From the NCBI GenBank assembly GCA_003553905.1, contig PWEA01000025.1, positions 1-55,624 of the forward strand: a stretch of 55,624 nucleotides of DNA, given 5' to 3'. Shown one piece after another: positions 6,741 to 47,336 of this stretch (positions within the stretch are counted from its first letter, which is position 1; the number at the start of each line of letters is the position of its first letter). Source of the DNA: Candidatus Aenigmatarchaeota archaeon. GTDB lineage: Archaea > Aenigmatarchaeota > Aenigmatarchaeia > PWEA01. The position numbers and the translations under genes are program-made. Under the pieces are notes generated by a model. The model saw nothing but the letters and a program-made list of their open reading frames with translations, searched no databases and was not told the origin of the DNA.

Positions 6741-7283
6741 TTAGAGGGCGTCTATCTCTTTGAGGTCTTCTTCTACCTTCTCTACTGCTTTTTCAACATC
6801 CTCTATCGAGCGCCCTCCGGTGCAGACGATCTTTCCTGATCCGAAAAGTAGAAAGGCCGCCGCGGGTTCCTCGATCCTGTACACAAGACCTGGGAACTGC
6901 TCCGGTTCATACTCGGCATTCCTGAGGGTGAATGCTATTTCGTTAAGCCTTAGTTTTCCGTCAAGCTGCGCCGATGCAACTATGTTCTGGATCTTTATGT
7001 CCTTGACTTCGTCGACGTCTATCCCTGTTTCTCTAACACCTTCAAGAACCTTGTCTATCGCTTCCCTAGCTCCCTCCGGGGAGTTTGCACCAGTACATAC
7101 TATCTTCCCTGAATTGAATATCAAGGCCGCTGCATTTGGATCGTTCATCCTGTACACAAGACCTGGGAACTGCTCCGGTTCATACTCTGTGCCAGGAAGA
7201 TGTGCAACTACCTTATTCAGGGGGATTTTTGCACTAAGCGTGGCTGAAGCGACAACGTTCTCTATTTTAAGTTCATCAACCAT
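6741..7283 (-). CDS. tbp: TATA-box binding protein
   Basis: Two repeats of NxVASA / EYEPEQFPGLVYR / GKIVCTG. Confidence 0.98.
   Translation of the reverse strand: MVDELKIENVVASATLSAKIPLNKVVAHLPGTEYEPEQFPGLVYRMNDPNAAALIFNSGKIVCTGANSPEGAREAIDKVLEGVRETGIDVDEVKDIKIQNIVASAQLDGKLRLNEIAFTLRNAEYEPEQFPGLVYRIEEPAAAFLLFGSGKIVCTGGRSIEDVEKAVEKVEEDLKEIDAL
6874..7187. repeat. 41-bp exact direct repeat inside tbp (6874-6914 and 7147-7187)
   Basis: ATCCTGTACACAAGACCTGGGAACTGCTCCGGTTCATACTC read in both places, 273 bp apart. Confidence 0.95.
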
Positions 7284-23342: not shown

Positions 23343-23456
23343 GGGCCGGTAGTCTAGTGGCTATGACGCCACCCTTACAAGAACCCTTCAGAAAAACGTT
23401 CATTTGAGGGGAGCAAAGATAGGTGGAGATCGCAAGTTCGAATCTTGCTCGGCCCA
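23343..23456 (+). tRNA. tRNA-Val(TAC) with 41-nt canonical (37/38) intron at 23380-23420
   Basis: GGGCCGG/TCGGCCC acceptor stem; CCACC-CT-TAC-A[intron]A-GGTGG; intron hairpin CCCTTCA/TGAGGGG. Confidence 0.92.
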
Positions 23457-23690: not shown

Positions 23691-23805
23691 GCTCCTGTAG
23701 TCTAGTCCGGTCAAGGATACTGGCCTTTCGATTCCGAAAGGATTGAGCCGAAATGGCGATGAAAGAAGAAAGCCAGTGACCCGGGTTCGAATCCCGGCGG
23801 GAGCA
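23691..23805 (+). tRNA. tRNA-Glu(TTC) with 40-nt canonical intron at 23731-23770
   Basis: GCTCCTG/CGGGAGC acceptor stem; CTGGC-CT-TTC-G[intron]A-GCCAG; BHB central helix CTTT/GAAG. Confidence 0.92.
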
Positions 23806-24313: not shown

Positions 24314-24419
24314 GCGGGGGTACCCAAGTGGTCAAAGGGGCTAGATTCCTGCAAAAGGAAAGCCAAGCTTAGGACCTAGTGGTTTAGTACCTTCGCAGGT
24401 TCGAATCCTGCCCCCCGCA
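24314..24419 (+). tRNA. tRNA-Leu(TAG) with 22-nt non-canonical intron at position 30/31 (24345-24366)
   Basis: Aligns with the intronless tRNA-Leu(CAG) at 32556. Removing ATTCCTGCAAAAGGAAAGCCAA restores the CTAGG/CCTAG stem. BHB motif is clear. Confidence 0.92.
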
Positions 24420-25720: not shown

Positions 25721-26893
25721 TCATTTATTGAGCATCCGTATACCCAACTCGTCGGATACACCTTCGTTTTTTTGTTCTGGGTTTTTAGAAGAGTTTTTTT
25801 CCTGGGATCTTGGACCCAGTATGTAAGGCGATTTGACTCCTGTGATTATAGCTATTACTTGCATACTTCCTTCGTACTCTGGAACAACTCTGGCGCCCCA
25901 TATTACCTGTGCCTGTGGATCCAACTGCTTCGATATTGATTCACCGATTTCGTTTATCTCATCCAGTTTGAGATCCTCGCCACCAATTACCTGAATTATT
26001 GCACCATCCGCTCCCTCGTACTTCATATCAAGCAATGGATGGTTCATGGCCTTCTGTGTTGCTTCTTCTGCCCTGCTACTTGAATCCGCCTCACCTATGC
26101 CTATTGAAGCTACGCCACCGTCTTTCATTATGGTCTTGACATCGGCGTAATCCAGGTTCACGAGCGAAGGCTGGGTTATTGTTTCACTTATCCCTTTGAT
26201 CATCGTTGAGATCAGTTCGTCGGCCACAGCAAAGGCCTGTTTTACAGGTAGATCACCGGCATAGTTGAGAAGTCTCTGGTTTTCTATCGCTATAACAGTG
26301 TCTGTAACCTTTCTCATTCTTTTGAGACCTTCTTCGGCCTTGACTATTCTCGTACCTTCCATCTTGAAAGGCATCGTAACTGCTGCCAGTACTATAGCTC
26401 CTTCGTTGTTTGCCATCTCAGCAACAACCGGAGCAGCTCCTGTGCCTGTTCCTCCACCAAGACCGCATGTAATAAAGACCATATCTGCGTCCTTAAGCTC
26501 TTCGCGAATCTCTCTCTGCGACTCCTCGGCAGACTTCTTACCTACTTCTGGTTTGCCGCCGGCACCTAAGCCTTTGGTAGTCTCTCGGCCTATTAACATC
26601 TTTTTGTCAGCATTTGAGGCACTCAGGTGTGAAGCATCTGTGTTAAGTGCCAAGGTTTCGGCACCATCTATCCCCATTTCTGTAAGTGTGGTGATAGTAT
26701 TGTTACCAGCTCCGCCTACTCCTACCACCTTTATCTGAGCCTGATTAATGTCTATATCAAACTCATCCTCCACTTCCTGGTGATCTATGCCGTCAGCCCC
26801 CCTAGGCAAGTTATGCACAGAATCATTGTTTTTTTGTTCTTTTTCTGATTTTTCGAAGTTTCTTTCAAAAGCGTTTTGAATTACGGAATCCAT
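25721..26893 (-). CDS. ftsZ: Cell division protein FtsZ (FtsZ2-type)
   Basis: GVGGAGNN and GLGGGTGTG tubulin signature; ISETITQPSLVNLDYAD resembles FtsZ2 rather than FtsZ1 (LDFAD); GGAGG SD before ATG 26893. Confidence 0.97.
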   Translation of the reverse strand: MDSVIQNAFERNFEKSEKEQKNNDSVHNLPRGADGIDHQEVEDEFDIDINQAQIKVVGVGGAGNNTITTLTEMGIDGAETLALNTDASHLSASNADKKMLIGRETTKGLGAGGKPEVGKKSAEESQREIREELKDADMVFITCGLGGGTGTGAAPVVAEMANNEGAIVLAAVTMPFKMEGTRIVKAEEGLKRMRKVTDTVIAIENQRLLNYAGDLPVKQAFAVADELISTMIKGISETITQPSLVNLDYADVKTIMKDGGVASIGIGEADSSSRAEEATQKAMNHPLLDMKYEGADGAIIQVIGGEDLKLDEINEIGESISKQLDPQAQVIWGARVVPEYEGSMQVIAIITGVKSPYILGPRSQEKNSSKNPEQKNEGVSDELGIRMLNK

Positions 26894-26956
26894 TTTTTTG
26901 TTCAACCTCCTTTATTATGTTTTTTGAAATATGTTTTTCAACATCCAAATCTTTTT

Positions 26957-27122
26957 AAGGTTTCATACGAAACCTTCTATTGCCCAAGAAATAGTTTCAG
27001 ATAAGTCTAACTCGCATAAGAAATCTGGTCTGCAAACTTGCCCAAGTTTGCGTGATTTCGGTTCGAATGCCCAACTTCCAACCGATGCCCAGTCGGATGG
27101 AAAATCGACTATACGTTATTAC
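26957..27122 (-). ncRNA. Candidate structured cis-regulatory leader or small RNA upstream of ftsZ with four UGGGCA motifs
   Basis: TGCCCA at 26981, 27039, 27068 and 27086 on the plus strand, three at the apex of inverted repeats; minus-strand BRE/TATA at about 27146-27160. Confidence 0.55.
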
Positions 27123-27145
27123 TATTCTAACATTTTAAGTTATAC

Positions 27146-27161
27146 TTTATAAAGCTTTCCC
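27146..27161 (-). promoter_or_regulatory. BRE-TATA promoter pointing toward ftsZ
   Basis: Minus strand GGGAAAGC-TTTATAAA. Confidence 0.55.
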
Positions 27162-27283
27162 TTGATATCAAATAAATCAACTGTATAAAATATATGTTAA
27201 TCTATACATATCAGGGGTCTTAGAAATCGTGTTTCCATTTTTATAAATTCAGAAATCTATTTAGTAGCGAAAGGTGTGGACAA

Positions 27284-27565
27284 ATGAAAAACAATGAACT
27301 AGAAAGAATTGCTTCTGCGGCATGTATAGATCTTACAGAAAACGAAAAGAAAGGCCTCGAAGAAGATATGGAAAATATACTTGACTGGTTTTCACAACTA
27401 GATAAAATAGATACCAAAGACGTAGAACCTGCATTTCACCCAATCGACATAAAAAACGAGATGAGAGAAGATGTGGTAGAGGAGTGTCTGGACAACGAAG
27501 ATGTGTTTTTAAATACAGAAAACTACGAAGACGGTTTTTTTAAAGGACCAAGCATAGGTGATTAG
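27284..27565 (+). CDS. gatC: Asp/Glu-tRNA amidotransferase subunit C
   Basis: ILDWFSQLDKIDT..VEP, MREDV and FFKGP motifs; precedes gatA. Confidence 0.92.
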   Translation: MKNNELERIASAACIDLTENEKKGLEEDMENILDWFSQLDKIDTKDVEPAFHPIDIKNEMREDVVEECLDNEDVFLNTENYEDGFFKGPSIGD

Positions 27566-27580
27566 ATCAGATACAAGGGC

Positions 27581-28966
27581 ATGAGTGCTTCGGAATTTGT
27601 TACAGGCGAAGTAGACTTAGAAAAATTTCATAAAAAACTGGAAAAAAGAATCGATGGATTAGTTGAACTCGGATTAATAAGACCCATTGACTATGAGTAC
27701 AGTGACAAAAAGGATGGTAAACTAAATGGCCTTCCGTTTACACTTAAGGATTCCATATGCTCAAAGAATGATCCAACCTACGCCGGCTCAAAAATATTGG
27801 AAGGCTATAAACCCCCGTTCGATGCAACCGTAACCAAAAAGATAAAGGACTCTGGAGGAACTATATTTGCTAAAACACACCAGGACGAGTTTGCCTTCGG
27901 AACTGCTTCGACAAACTGTGCATTCACAACGCCAAAAAATCCATGGGATAAAGAAAGATGTTGTGGAGGCTCGTCCGGTGGGGCAGCAGGACTATCCGCA
28001 GCTCTTGATCTACCGCATATAAATCTGGGTGAGTCAACGGGTGGATCTATATCAGAACCTGCTTCTTTTACTGGTGTCGTAGGACTAACACCTACCTATG
28101 GCCTCGTATCAAGATATGGACTGATATCCTTTGCAAACTCTCTGGACAAGATAGGTCCAATCTCAAGAAAAGTAGAAGATGCAGCTTTGGGGCTTGACAT
28201 AATATCTGGAAAGGACTTCAAAGACCAAACGACGGTAAAAAAAGAAACCAACTACAGAAAATCTATATCTGAAGATCTATCTGGAATGAAGATAGGGCTG
28301 CCGACGAGTTATTTTGACATAGCACAAGACGAAGTTTCCGAAGTTGTGATGAATGCAGTAGATGATATGAGAAGCCTGGGGGCTGAAACAGAGGAAATTG
28401 AACTTGAAATGACTGAAGCTGCACTCCCAGCATATTACATAATAGCTCCTGCGGAGGCTTCGACAAACCTGGCAAAATACTGTGGAATGAGATATGGGAT
28501 GGAAGGAGAACCAGATGGCAACTTCAGGAACTACTTCTCCAAAATAAGAGGCAAAGGCTTCGGAGAAGAAGTGAAAAGAAGGATAATGCTCGGGACCTTC
28601 ACAAGGATGGCAGGTTATCGAGACAAATACTATCTAAAAGCTCTAAAGGTCAGGAAAAAGATAATAAACGATTTCAAGCGTGCATTCAAAAAGGTAGATG
28701 TCCTGGCTGCTCCGACTGCTCCCATGGTTGCCCCAAAGATAGAGGAAGTAGAAGAAATGGCTCCTGTCGAACAGTACAAACTCGACAAACTCACCGCACC
28801 TATAAATCTCGCTGGAATGCCTCAACTTTCTGTTCCGTGTGGGTTCCATAAAAAAATGCCTGTTGGTCTCCACATACTAGGTGACCATTTCCAAGAGGAA
28901 GATATACTAAGAGCCGGACATAACTACGAAAAGAGGAGAGGTAAAATAGACTATCCGGAGGCATAA
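27581..28966 (+). CDS. gatA: Asp/Glu-tRNA amidotransferase subunit A
   Basis: Amidase signature GGSSGG, STGGSI and GFGEEVKRRIMLG. Confidence 0.96.
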   Translation: MSASEFVTGEVDLEKFHKKLEKRIDGLVELGLIRPIDYEYSDKKDGKLNGLPFTLKDSICSKNDPTYAGSKILEGYKPPFDATVTKKIKDSGGTIFAKTHQDEFAFGTASTNCAFTTPKNPWDKERCCGGSSGGAAGLSAALDLPHINLGESTGGSISEPASFTGVVGLTPTYGLVSRYGLISFANSLDKIGPISRKVEDAALGLDIISGKDFKDQTTVKKETNYRKSISEDLSGMKIGLPTSYFDIAQDEVSEVVMNAVDDMRSLGAETEEIELEMTEAALPAYYIIAPAEASTNLAKYCGMRYGMEGEPDGNFRNYFSKIRGKGFGEEVKRRIMLGTFTRMAGYRDKYYLKALKVRKKIINDFKRAFKKVDVLAAPTAPMVAPKIEEVEEMAPVEQYKLDKLTAPINLAGMPQLSVPCGFHKKMPVGLHILGDHFQEEDILRAGHNYEKRRGKIDYPEA

Positions 28967-28967
28967 A

Positions 28968-30386
28968 ATGAGCGAAGAAAACGTAAAGATAGGTCTCGAG
29001 ACCCATTTGCAGCTATTAACAGACTCTAAGCTATTCTGTGGCTGCCCAACCACAGGCAACGATAATCCAAATACACGGGTTTGTCCAACGTGTTTGGGGA
29101 TGCCAGGATCAAGACCTAGAATAAACAAAAGGGCTATAGAGATGGGCATAAAGGTTGCCGCAGCACTGGGTTGTGAAACTCCCGATGAGATGAACTTTTC
29201 AAGAAAAACCTACTTCTATCCCGACATGCCTAAAAACTTCCAGATAACACAGTTCTCAATTCCTGTAGGCACAAACGGTGAAGTTACAATGGAACTAGAC
29301 AGCCAAGAAAAGACTGTAAGAATAAAAAGGGTTCATATTGAAGAAGACCCTGGTAAGCTTAAACATATCGGTGGAAATATAACTTCTTCTGACTATGTTC
29401 TTATAGACTACAACAGGAGCGGAGTACCTCTATGTGAAATAGTAACAAAACCCGACCTTAAAAGCCCCGAAGAAGCAAGAACCTTCCTGAGAAAACTATC
29501 AGAAATATTTGAATATCTCGGTGTTTACGATACAACAGGTGAGGCAACAATACGTAGCGATGCAAACATATCAACAGGTGGCGAAAGAGCTGAGGTCAAG
29601 AATATAACTGGTTTCAAGGATACGGAAAAGGCGCTTAGGTATGAAATAAGAAGACAGGTAAACCTGAAGAAACGTGGCAGAAAGGTAAAAAGAGAAACAA
29701 GAGGATACGATGATAAATCAGGGACTACGAAGCCCCTCAGAACCAAGGAACAGGAAGCTGATTACGGTTATATCTTCGAGCCGGATCTGACGAGGATAGA
29801 GCTAAGAGACAGTTGGGTAAATACACTTGAAAAAGAGATTCCCGAACTTCCACATCAAAAAAAGAGAAGGTACGTGGACGAATACCAACTATCAAAGGAA
29901 GTTGCCGCAGCGATATGTTCAGACTTTGATATGACAAAGATATTTGAAGATATAATAAACAAGGGAAAGAACGTAAGCATCGTTGCAAACATTCTCTCTG
30001 GCCCCGTTAAAAAGGTATTAAACTACAACGAAATCCGTTTGGCTGAATCAGAAATCGATGAACAAAAGATTATTAAAATAGTGGATATGGTTGAAAACAA
30101 AGAAATAACAGACAGAAATGCAGAGATGATAATAAGGGATATAGCTATCGAGGATAAGGATCCGGAAGATGTGAAGAAGGAAAAGGGTCTTGGGGCTGTA
30201 ACCGACGACAAAATAGATGACATGGTAGACGAAGTTCTGAGAGAAAACGAAGATGTGGTCGAGGACTATATGAACGGCAAAGGGGAAGCTCTAAATCACC
30301 TGGTGGGTAAGATCATGGAAAAGTCTAGAGGAAATGCAGACCCACGGAATGCAAGAGATACCCTCAAAAAGAGGATTGAAAACTAG
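28968..30386 (+). CDS. gatB: Asp/Glu-tRNA amidotransferase subunit B
   Basis: IGLETHLQL, SKLFC, YFYPDMPK, EEDPG, DYNRSGVPL and DANIS motifs. Confidence 0.97.
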   Translation: MSEENVKIGLETHLQLLTDSKLFCGCPTTGNDNPNTRVCPTCLGMPGSRPRINKRAIEMGIKVAAALGCETPDEMNFSRKTYFYPDMPKNFQITQFSIPVGTNGEVTMELDSQEKTVRIKRVHIEEDPGKLKHIGGNITSSDYVLIDYNRSGVPLCEIVTKPDLKSPEEARTFLRKLSEIFEYLGVYDTTGEATIRSDANISTGGERAEVKNITGFKDTEKALRYEIRRQVNLKKRGRKVKRETRGYDDKSGTTKPLRTKEQEADYGYIFEPDLTRIELRDSWVNTLEKEIPELPHQKKRRYVDEYQLSKEVAAAICSDFDMTKIFEDIINKGKNVSIVANILSGPVKKVLNYNEIRLAESEIDEQKIIKIVDMVENKEITDRNAEMIIRDIAIEDKDPEDVKKEKGLGAVTDDKIDDMVDEVLRENEDVVEDYMNGKGEALNHLVGKIMEKSRGNADPRNARDTLKKRIEN

Positions 30387-31050: not shown

Positions 31051-31127
31051 GGGCCCGTAGCCTAGTCAGGATTCAAGGCGGCTGGCTTCGGACCAGCAGA
31101 TCGGGGGTTCAAATCCCTCCGGGCCCG
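31051..31127 (+). tRNA. tRNA-Arg(TCG)
   Basis: GGGCCCG/CGGGCCC acceptor stem; GCTGG-CTTCGGA-CCAGC anticodon arm. Confidence 0.96.
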
Positions 31128-31160
31128 CTATACAAATCCTGGACCTGGTTATCTTTGTAA

Positions 31161-31249
31161 GCTCCCGTAGTCTAGCCCGGCCAAAGTTTTGCGGCTAAGG
31201 ATACGAGCCTCTCGAGCTCGGGACCCGGGTTCGAATCCCGGCGGGAGCA
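31161..31249 (+). tRNA. tRNA-Glu(CTC) with 14-nt non-canonical D-arm intron at position 21/22 (31185-31198)
   Basis: Aligns with tRNA-Glu(TTC) after removing AGTTTTGCGGCTAA; helix GGCC/GGCT with two AA|N bulges. Confidence 0.9.
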
Positions 31250-31351
31250 CTATTTTCATCACATACCAACAGGTAAATGCAATAAAATAAGAAAAAGAAA
31301 ATGTAAATAAGAAATTAAATCTGTTTTGTAAGAATCTCAAAGCTGAGTTCT

Positions 31352-47228: not shown

Positions 47229-47336
47229 GCCTCGGTGGCTCAGAGGTAGAGCGCGTCCTTGGTAGGAAGACCGGGATAATCTCGAGTATTCACAGAAAGG
47301 ACGAGGTCGCGGGTTCAAATCCCGCCCGAGGCTCCA
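47229..47336 (+). tRNA. tRNA-Thr(GGT) with 33-nt canonical intron at 47265-47297, CCA encoded
   Basis: GCCTCGG/CCGAGGC acceptor stem; CGTCC-TT-GGT-A[intron]A-GGACG. Confidence 0.93.

Follow-up and report, generated by a model that had tools for sequence, protein, structure and literature searches.

Iron-responsive elements bring several hairpins with one constant loop together in one messenger RNA (mRNA). In plasmids, replication genes are controlled by antisense RNAs that pair through kissing loops, as in R1 (CopA/CopT), ColE1 (RNA I/RNA II), and pIP501 (RNAIII), and countertranscripts are defined there by stem-loops on both strands, with recognition through a U-turn loop (YUNR) that one partner or the other carries (PMC4485353). 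Archaeal ftsZ2 is usually preceded by cdrS, which encodes a ribbon-helix-helix regulator; the available part of the report by Darnell et al. (PMC7439475) places CdrS in every major archaeal group but DPANN. Very few archaeal cis-regulatory RNAs are known, and our literature search returned none for cell division; no paper that it found dealt with RNA elements at ftsZ2, with RNA elements of Aenigmatarchaeota, or with how these archaea regulate FtsZ. Here, we describe a leader with repeated hairpin loops that lies immediately 5′ of an FtsZ2-type cell-division gene in a DNA stretch of 55,624 nt (contig PWEA01000025.1, positions 1 to 55,624; hereafter, the window) from a Candidatus Aenigmatarchaeota archaeon. 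An earlier note, made from the letters of this window, had drawn attention to the region.

A Conserved Leader Precedes the FtsZ2-Type Gene across the Class

The gap of 390 nt between the minus-strand FtsZ gene and the divergent plus-strand gatCAB operon contains a cis-regulatory leader of the FtsZ2-type gene that is conserved class-wide and extends for approximately 230 nt from a BRE/TATA promoter (BRE, transcription factor B recognition element) to the Shine-Dalgarno site (Table 1). It is a genuine and new element that serves ftsZ2 alone, and it belongs to no described family. It is conserved, it forms stems, and its loops are uniform in one leader and specific to a lineage. The structured RNA that the earlier note had proposed at ftsZ2 was borne out as a conserved non-coding element, with covarying stems and without an Rfam match.

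Leader comparisons drew on the order (22 genomes) and on 151 genomes sampled from the class; labels such as f1, f3, and f4 (families), g164 (a genus), and G008 (genomes) denote relatives compared within the class, and G000 is the genome of the window (702,328 bp, 87% complete). BLAST matched the intergenic region in five of the seven other genomes of the genus at 78–84% identity; a match in a second genus of the family was 69% identical. The alignments conserve the BRE/TATA box (27145–27160; given as 27146–27161 in the earlier note) and the entire sequence that runs from hairpin 1 as far as the start codon; the approximately 40 nt between this promoter and hairpin 1 are poorly conserved. A covariance model of 216 positions and three hairpins, built from seven leaders, matched 15 of the 22 genomes of the order and 40 of the 151 sampled from the class, and a triple-motif pattern supplied three loci missed by the model under strict filters (G012, G020, and G026). 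Run on 371 genomes, the triple-motif pattern gave mostly chance matches in GC-rich coding sequence outside the order, and one of the 30 returned loci was beside FtsZ. The architecture was found directly 5′ of the orthologous FtsZ gene in 45 of the 47 matched genomes inspected; 17 of these 45 belong to the order (22 genomes), and the remaining 28 represent further families of the class. In the other two, G053 and G079, the match was short and weak, and FtsZ was not nearby. All 45 verified loci have the same order of promoter, hairpins, A/T-rich module, and ftsZ2, and the flanking genes vary; no conserved neighbouring regulator gene was found, the element being preceded by gatC in f1, by a permease gene in f4, and by a different gene in f3. 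G013, a complete genome from the order of G000, has three UGGGCA copies with short hairpins by a tRNA-like region with no FtsZ (locus L063, G013:C1:829400-831500, at approximately 300–380).

Table 1. Positions of the leader, its parts, and the adjoining genes in the window.
Feature	Position	Strand	Description
FtsZ2-type cell-division gene	25721–26893	minus	390 aa; ATG 26891–26893; TIGR00065, 410 bits
Shine-Dalgarno GGAGG	26906–26910	minus	Unchanged across lineages while the loop motif varies
Conserved A/T-rich module	26945–26958	either	UUAAAAAGAUUUGG on minus; BRE/TATA-like on plus
Hairpin 5	26957–26976	minus	8-bp stem, GUAU loop, motif-free; abuts the A/T-rich module
Motif copy 4	26977–26995	minus	UUGGGCA 26981–26987 in weak 4–5 bp hairpin
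Decayed extra motif copy	27013–27023	minus	UUCUUAUGCG in G000, UUCUUGGGU in two congeners (alignment)
Hairpin 3	27032–27051	minus	7-bp stem, loop UGGGCA (27039–27044)
Motif copy 2 (GUUGGGCA)	27068–27075	minus	Between hairpins; core TGGGCA 27068–27073
Hairpin 1	27076–27102	minus	10-bp stem, one U·U mismatch, 7-nt loop CUGGGCA (27086–27092)
Distal promoter (putative)	27145–27160	minus	BRE-like purine-rich hexamer 27155–27160 and TATA box 27145–27154
gatCAB operon	start 27284	plus	Divergent from the FtsZ gene

The distal promoter was kept in all seven family-f1 loci, and other families have an equivalent box in the corresponding position; transcription from the promoter would start near 27120–27125, which predicts a long ftsZ2 leader. 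Just 5′ of the distal BRE, a box at 27162–27180 on the minus strand contains a perfect 10-bp palindrome (27162–27171), with a direct repeat of the half-site before it. This box is kept in all seven f1 loci, and family f4 has another conserved box at the same place; these boxes are candidate transcription-factor sites of the ftsZ2 promoter. Downstream, the Shine-Dalgarno site lies at least 70 nt 3′ of the last motif copy, and since it stays GGAGG while the loops vary, the loops are not Shine-Dalgarno mimics. In family f17 (loci L072 and L073; G350 and G347), the sequence that separates the module from the Shine-Dalgarno site folds into a long additional hairpin of 10–13 bp, which G000 lacks.

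Stems Covary and Loops Follow a Lineage Code

An alignment of 24 leaders, which was fitted to the covariance model and hence is tilted towards the structure, had 91.7% of its cells paired, as compared to a shuffle mean of 64.8%, and none of 500 shuffles was as high; when the partners were slid by 1–3 columns, pairing fell to 50.7% or less. Changes on both sides were seen in 23 of the 26 pairs. For hairpin 1, all 11 modelled pairs had changed on both sides somewhere in the 24 leaders, and the stems of other families have no sequence in common with that of G000, yet pair perfectly. Hairpin 3 was paired in 100% of cells, with both-sided changes in five of its seven pairs, and such changes occurred in seven of the eight pairs of hairpin 5. 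Compensatory changes in relatives therefore back the two stems that the earlier note had drawn at 27076–27102 and 27032–27051, and its reading that the stems differ while the loop is kept was confirmed in the relatives, where a constant loop sits on covarying, sequence-variable stems. Its third stem, around the fourth motif, survived in part: a short inner stem of 4–5 bp is possible, but the outer arm GGUUUC pairs with the downstream GAAACC to form hairpin 5, a pairing that covaries across families, and the upstream GAAACU arm that had been proposed as its partner is not conserved in the genus. The stem around motif copy 4 is inconsistently kept within the genus. Motif copy 2, which is degenerate (CUGGGU) in one of the seven f1 genomes, is either single-stranded or located in an alternative hairpin to which the 3′ arm of hairpin 1 also contributes. 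By itself, the G000 leader folds modestly better than its shuffles (z = −2.09). Two further pairings were rejected: one between motif 4 and the Shine-Dalgarno/start region, suggested by alifold, showed no covariation and could not be aligned in G008, and a long-range closing helix, in which a 5′ A-rich box would pair with sequence that precedes hairpin 5, was, on inspection, inconsistent between lineages.

A total of 95 motif copies were found in 26 leaders (two to six copies per leader), and 69 of them are in hairpins with at least four Watson–Crick pairs. The loop motif is uniform inside one leader and differs between lineages. The order of G000, as well as G026 and G360, has UUGGGCR; other forms are YCGGGCU (six unstructured copies in G066), GGGCUU (G262 and G347), UUGGGGA or UGGGGGA (f17, f38, and f40), CUGGACA (f7, f35, and f40), UUCGGCA (G024), UUGGCG (G063), UGGGGACUU (G025), and UGGGACUA (f14), and UGGGACU is also among the lineage variants. 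All three genomes of genus g164 (G341, G342, and G343) carry CCCCCA in intact hairpins, with the whole architecture kept; this loop is complementary to UGGGGGA, the loop found in sister genera, and one g164 stem covaries between G342 and G341. Loops were 6–8 nt long in 48 of 67 motif hairpins, and their cores are G/C-rich within an A/T-rich leader. A YUNR sequence falls within the first five nucleotides of the loop in 45 of the 67; in g164, YUNR is on the antisense strand.

The Element Is Found Once in the Genome and Matches No Rfam Family

The earlier note had counted four clustered minus-strand copies of TGGGCA, and these positions (26981, 27039, 27068, and 27086) were borne out. The window as a whole is not enriched in this hexamer (20 matches as compared to 15.5 expected), which occurs 185 times on both strands of the 702,328-bp genome; the leader is the sole site in G000 with at least three same-strand copies inside 150 bp. 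Chained runs of the local motif were likewise confined to the ftsZ2 locus in all six genomes tested (G000, G014, G016, G010, G066, and G207). The G000 region has one BLAST match in its own genome, and relatives have one locus per genome. A miniature inverted-repeat transposable element (MITE) or dispersed repeat, which the earlier note had named as a finding that would overturn its proposal, is ruled out by the single BLAST match and the unique motif cluster in G000, as a single-copy element is not a MITE. Another candidate, a regulon of UGGGCR hairpins in G000, was rejected as well: 14 such hairpins with stems of at least 5 bp were found, as compared to 9–29 for five control motifs, and they were in coding regions. 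Outside the ftsZ2 leader, the only non-coding UGGGCR hairpin in G000 is an intergenic one with an AUGGGCA loop, on the plus strand of contig C6 at approximately 7010–7050, beside a divergent gene of 154 aa.

The Rfam search that the earlier note had called for gave no match to the leader: at gathering thresholds, seven transfer RNA (tRNA) matches were the only ones in the whole window, and a scan of 26000–28000 with cmscan against Rfam 15 at E up to 10 had a best hit of E 1.9 with 18.5 bits against a threshold of 35, which is noise. The leader therefore has no known family to be assigned to in that database. The tRNA scans of the leader region were also negative.

The Downstream Gene and the Missing CdrS

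Two FtsZ genes are present in G000, one in the window and one on contig C1 (locus L030, 985–2232, minus strand), the latter FtsZ1-like and followed by secE, nusG/spt5, and rpl11. When compared with FtsZ1 of M. jannaschii, the contig C1 copy scored 412.9 bits and the window copy 344.4 bits. The available part of a preprint reports that DPANN encode both FtsZ1 and FtsZ2 (bioRxiv 10.1101/2020.06.04.133736). Because the contig C1 copy is closer to FtsZ1 and DPANN carry both, the window copy is assigned to the FtsZ2 type by elimination. No cluster was reported at the FtsZ1-like gene in the genome scan for TGGGCA clusters.

The earlier note had observed that cdrS, which normally precedes ftsZ2, is missing here, and had read the structured RNA as sitting in its place. 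The first part stood: no minus-strand open reading frame (ORF) of at least 30 aa occurs between 26905 and 27240, and no RHH_1 (PF01402) gene was found in G000 at its 87% completeness. The idea of a replacement did not stand, since absence of CdrS from DPANN is already described in the available part of Darnell et al. (PMC7439475), so that its absence here is expected and indicates no local replacement event. The locus is not a member of the cdrS-ftsZ2 operon class, as no small PF01402 gene lies directly 5′ of ftsZ2. A conserved small ORF in the region was considered too and rejected: a plus-strand ORF of 73 aa (26931–27152) is disrupted in congeners by indels of 4, 6, and 10 nt, which break every frame, and thus no conserved ORF exists on either strand.

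Strand Symmetry and a Candidate Opposite-Strand Promoter

The earlier note had held that G·U pairs favour the minus strand. With an unbiased hairpin finder that treats G·U and A·C alike, no strand bias was apparent: 67 motif hairpins from 27 genomes contained 478 Watson–Crick pairs, 17 G·U, 20 A·C, and 7 other, and a more redundant set of 26 leaders contained 468, 16, 10, and 7, respectively. In hairpin 5, the unbiased count was five G·U and three A·C. Rare and symmetric wobble pairs are as expected if both strands must fold. In 18 of 21 leaders, the sense strand had the lower raw folding energy, but the mean folding z-score over the 21 leaders was −3.23 for the antisense strand as compared to −1.72 for the sense strand. 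Symmetric wobbles, antisense z-scores, and the flipped loop of g164 argue that the hairpins matter on both strands, and the complementary g164 loop and the lack of strand bias fit an RNA–RNA mechanism better than a protein that recognises a G-rich loop.

Across the class, no sequence of the element is better conserved than the A/T-rich module next to hairpin 5. Read on the plus strand, it presents a BRE-like hexamer followed at 0–2 nt by a T-rich TATA-like box, facing away from ftsZ2. A regular expression for the module matched 22 of the 26 leaders, and variants were recognised by eye in G026, G207, and G119. In several loci the module is near-identical to the distal promoter of the same locus, and it is rare elsewhere in G000 (five loose matches). 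The module is thus a candidate antisense or bidirectional promoter, for which the usual spacing between a TATA box and a start site would place the plus-strand start near 26980–26985. A plus-strand RNA would start at the complement of motif 4 and then cross the complements of all motif hairpins. As hairpin 5 lies between the plus-strand TATA box and this predicted start, only the sense RNA, whose synthesis depends on the distal promoter, would contain it. The genome-wide promoter profile (105 aligned promoters) has a BRE signal too weak to orient the module.

A Proposed Countertranscript Control and Its Rivals

We tentatively favour control of ftsZ2 by a countertranscript with kissing loops. 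Under this proposal, a canonical promoter approximately 260 nt 5′ of the start codon would produce ftsZ2 mRNA, the first approximately 170 nt of whose leader would fold into two to six hairpins that share the same short G/C-rich loop (YUGGGCR in G000); 3′ of these would come a motif-free hairpin, the A/T-rich module, and the ribosome-binding site. A complementary RNA would dock on the loops, most simply a countertranscript initiated at the module; this antisense RNA would carry complementary loops, allowing fast kissing pairing at several identical sites, and the pairing would determine the amount of long-leader ftsZ2 mRNA that persists or reaches translation. A further contribution could come from collision between the facing promoters. 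The scheme as a whole is reminiscent of plasmid copy-number control. The YUNR loops, the G/C-rich cores, the strand-symmetric stems, the g164 flip, and the facing module all fit control of the leader by a complementary RNA.

Several observations weigh against this proposal. A cis-antisense RNA is complementary whatever the sequence, so that loops that are identical in a leader and kept order-wide are left unexplained by it, which points to a third party, either a protein or a trans-encoded RNA. Twenty-six of the 95 motif copies lie outside hairpins, including all six in G066. The module is missing from the G012 leader, and in family f1 it is almost palindromic and readable as a sense promoter towards ftsZ2 too. 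A run of at least five A before the first motif, i.e., a T-run at which an antisense transcript could end, was seen in just 12 of 31 leaders, as compared to at least five T in 4 of 31, which is a weak signal. Lastly, the model-fitted alignment, which is biased to the modelled strand, counts 32 G·U against 8 A·C overall and 9 against 1 in hairpin 5. The identical loops could reflect selection against intramolecular loop–loop pairing combined with any-to-any docking, or they could reflect the third party.

A bolder extension of countertranscript control, which we regard as possible and hold with less confidence than pairing itself, is a chromosomal RNA timer for division, in which the leader and the countertranscript made by the facing promoters would recognise one another via several identical U-turn kissing loops and impose an antisense threshold on FtsZ2 synthesis, a type of device known until now from the copy-number control of plasmids; such a timer would be the DPANN (Aenigmatarchaeota-like) counterpart of the CdrS protein switch found in other archaea, with a loop code that drifted and once flipped strand as the class radiated.

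The main rival, which on balance we consider somewhat unlikely, is a multivalent protein-binding leader, whose loops would be read by a probably oligomeric RNA-binding protein that represses or activates ftsZ2 translation or mRNA stability and whose specificity drifts. Loops identical within each leader and kept across the order while the stems change completely speak for such a protein, as do lineage-specific variants that change in concert and the single-stranded copies, including the six unstructured ones of G066; motif clusters unique to the locus in six genomes are consistent with a dedicated regulator. However, all three g164 genomes carry the complementary C-rich loop in intact hairpins, and G·U is avoided like A·C (17 and 20 in 522 positions), which is unusual for a fold needed on one strand. 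CsrA (PF02599) was not found in G000, and no conserved neighbour gene could supply a partner.

It is improbable, in our view, that the repeated loops pair with a trans-encoded RNA (a small RNA or an mRNA with a single complementary loop) that the leader titrates or by which it is controlled. Such an RNA would account for the uniform loops, their U-turn form, their lineage-specific change, and the polarity swap, but G000 contains no second cluster of the motif or of its complement, and the rest of the genome has only a few hairpins with a complementary loop, most of them in coding sequence; the three non-coding candidates match no Rfam family or tRNA. One of the coding hairpins, in gatB (approximately 29035–29057, plus strand), has 7 bp and a loop that is the exact complement of the leader loop, and lies 75 nt into the coding sequence at Cys-Gly-Cys-Pro-Thr-Thr codons; it looks like a by-product of Cys-Pro codons and is probably nothing more than that. 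A separate partner in cis was not found either, in that the complement of the local motif is absent from the leader and the gene in 13 loci.

More improbable still is an independent small RNA gene, in which a small RNA of approximately 170 nt, made from the distal promoter, would end at hairpin 5 and the module would be the true sense promoter of a short-leader ftsZ2. The f1 module does have a BRE-like hexamer on its upstream side too, and 45 of the 105 aligned promoters of G000 have their TATA box 30–50 nt from the start codon, but family f4 does not keep a BRE on the sense side, the arrangement of promoter, hairpins, module, and ftsZ2 is fixed in 45 of 45 loci while the flanking genes vary, and no terminator-like site was found in 26700–27400, with no T-run after hairpin 5. 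We give very little weight to a DNA-level element, i.e., repeated operator sites of a transcription factor, or cruciforms, between two promoters: it would agree with a motif that works in either orientation (g164) and with symmetric stems of Watson–Crick pairs only, but a factor that binds duplex DNA needs no covarying variable inverted repeats around an asymmetric 7-bp core, and all copies are 3′ of the start predicted for the distal promoter. An RNA G-quadruplex, suggested by the exactly four GGG tracts of the G000 leader, or a ligand-binding riboswitch is scarcely credible, as the GGAC, CGGC, and GGCG lineages have no GGG tracts, g164 has C-runs, the copy number of two to six means that four G-tracts are not kept in all members, the flanking bases are conserved, the tracts are in loops of stable hairpins, and no conserved junction or internal-loop pocket was found.

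Other Features of the Window

The runs listed with the stretch were nine DNA metagenomes from soda or salt lakes, with no RNA run among them. Four tRNAs of 105–115 nt, called by Rfam and unreported by ARAGORN, are located at 23343–23456, 23691–23805, 24314–24419, and 47229–47333 (plus strand), and are probably intron-containing archaeal tRNAs. ARAGORN also reported a “tRNA-???” with a four-base anticodon (aagg) at 31161–31250 on the plus strand, directly 3′ of tRNA-Arg (31051–31128), which had no Rfam call.

Significance and Comparison with Known Control Systems

CdrS is the only known dedicated ftsZ2 regulator, and its absence from DPANN raises the question of how division is timed in these tiny symbionts. 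The leader offers a concrete, testable handle on this problem, as its loop variants, its two to six copies, and its one strand flip form a natural mutational series. If the antisense proposal is true, an archaeon would use plasmid-type kissing-loop control in its core cell cycle; if instead a protein reads the loops, they would point to a new RNA-binding division regulator. By analogy, the element may work like either of these known kinds of control, antisense kissing loops or repeated-loop protein platforms.

Among protein platforms, CsrA/RsmA leaders and CsrB/RsmZ sponges resemble the leader in having several short GG-containing motifs in hairpin loops and in single-stranded spacers, on variable stems. 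They differ in that the loop core here is GGGC and not GGA, which is found only in some other lineages (CUGGACA), in that no copy overlaps the Shine-Dalgarno site, and in that the element is contiguous with the mRNA, with no free small RNA, and has one genus with the complementary loop. The CsrB/RsmZ-like sponge that the earlier note had offered is not supported in that form: CsrA/RsmA (PF02599) was not found in G000 (87% complete) by a search that was positive in 3 of 14 reference genomes, the element never occurs apart from ftsZ2 in the 45 genomes checked, and no terminator-like site was found in 26700–27400.

Iron-responsive elements share with the leader a constant loop on covarying stems, repeated in one untranslated region and read by one partner. 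They belong to another domain of life and have another sequence and another partner, and the loop described here varies by lineage and is replaceable by its complement.

As for plasmid countertranscripts, stem-loops on both strands and YUNR in either partner are found in the leaders too (antisense z-score of −3.23, symmetric wobbles, YUNR in 45 of 67 hairpins). The likeness extends to leader hairpins that fold on both strands, to G/C-rich loops of 6–8 nt with YUNR in sense or antisense, to a promoter-like element that faces the sense promoter, and to loop changes that define lineage variants. The differences are that the leader is located on an archaeal chromosome, before a cell-division gene and with no plasmid or mobile context, that the same loop is used two to six times on unrelated stems, and that the antisense transcript is here only predicted.

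The cdrS-ftsZ2 operon with its ribbon-helix-helix regulator, as described in PMC7439475 and PMC8406309, differs in that CdrS is encoded by a protein gene co-transcribed with ftsZ2, whereas the leader has no conserved ORF; in both, a dedicated control device is located immediately 5′ of ftsZ2 and has been kept over a large clade.

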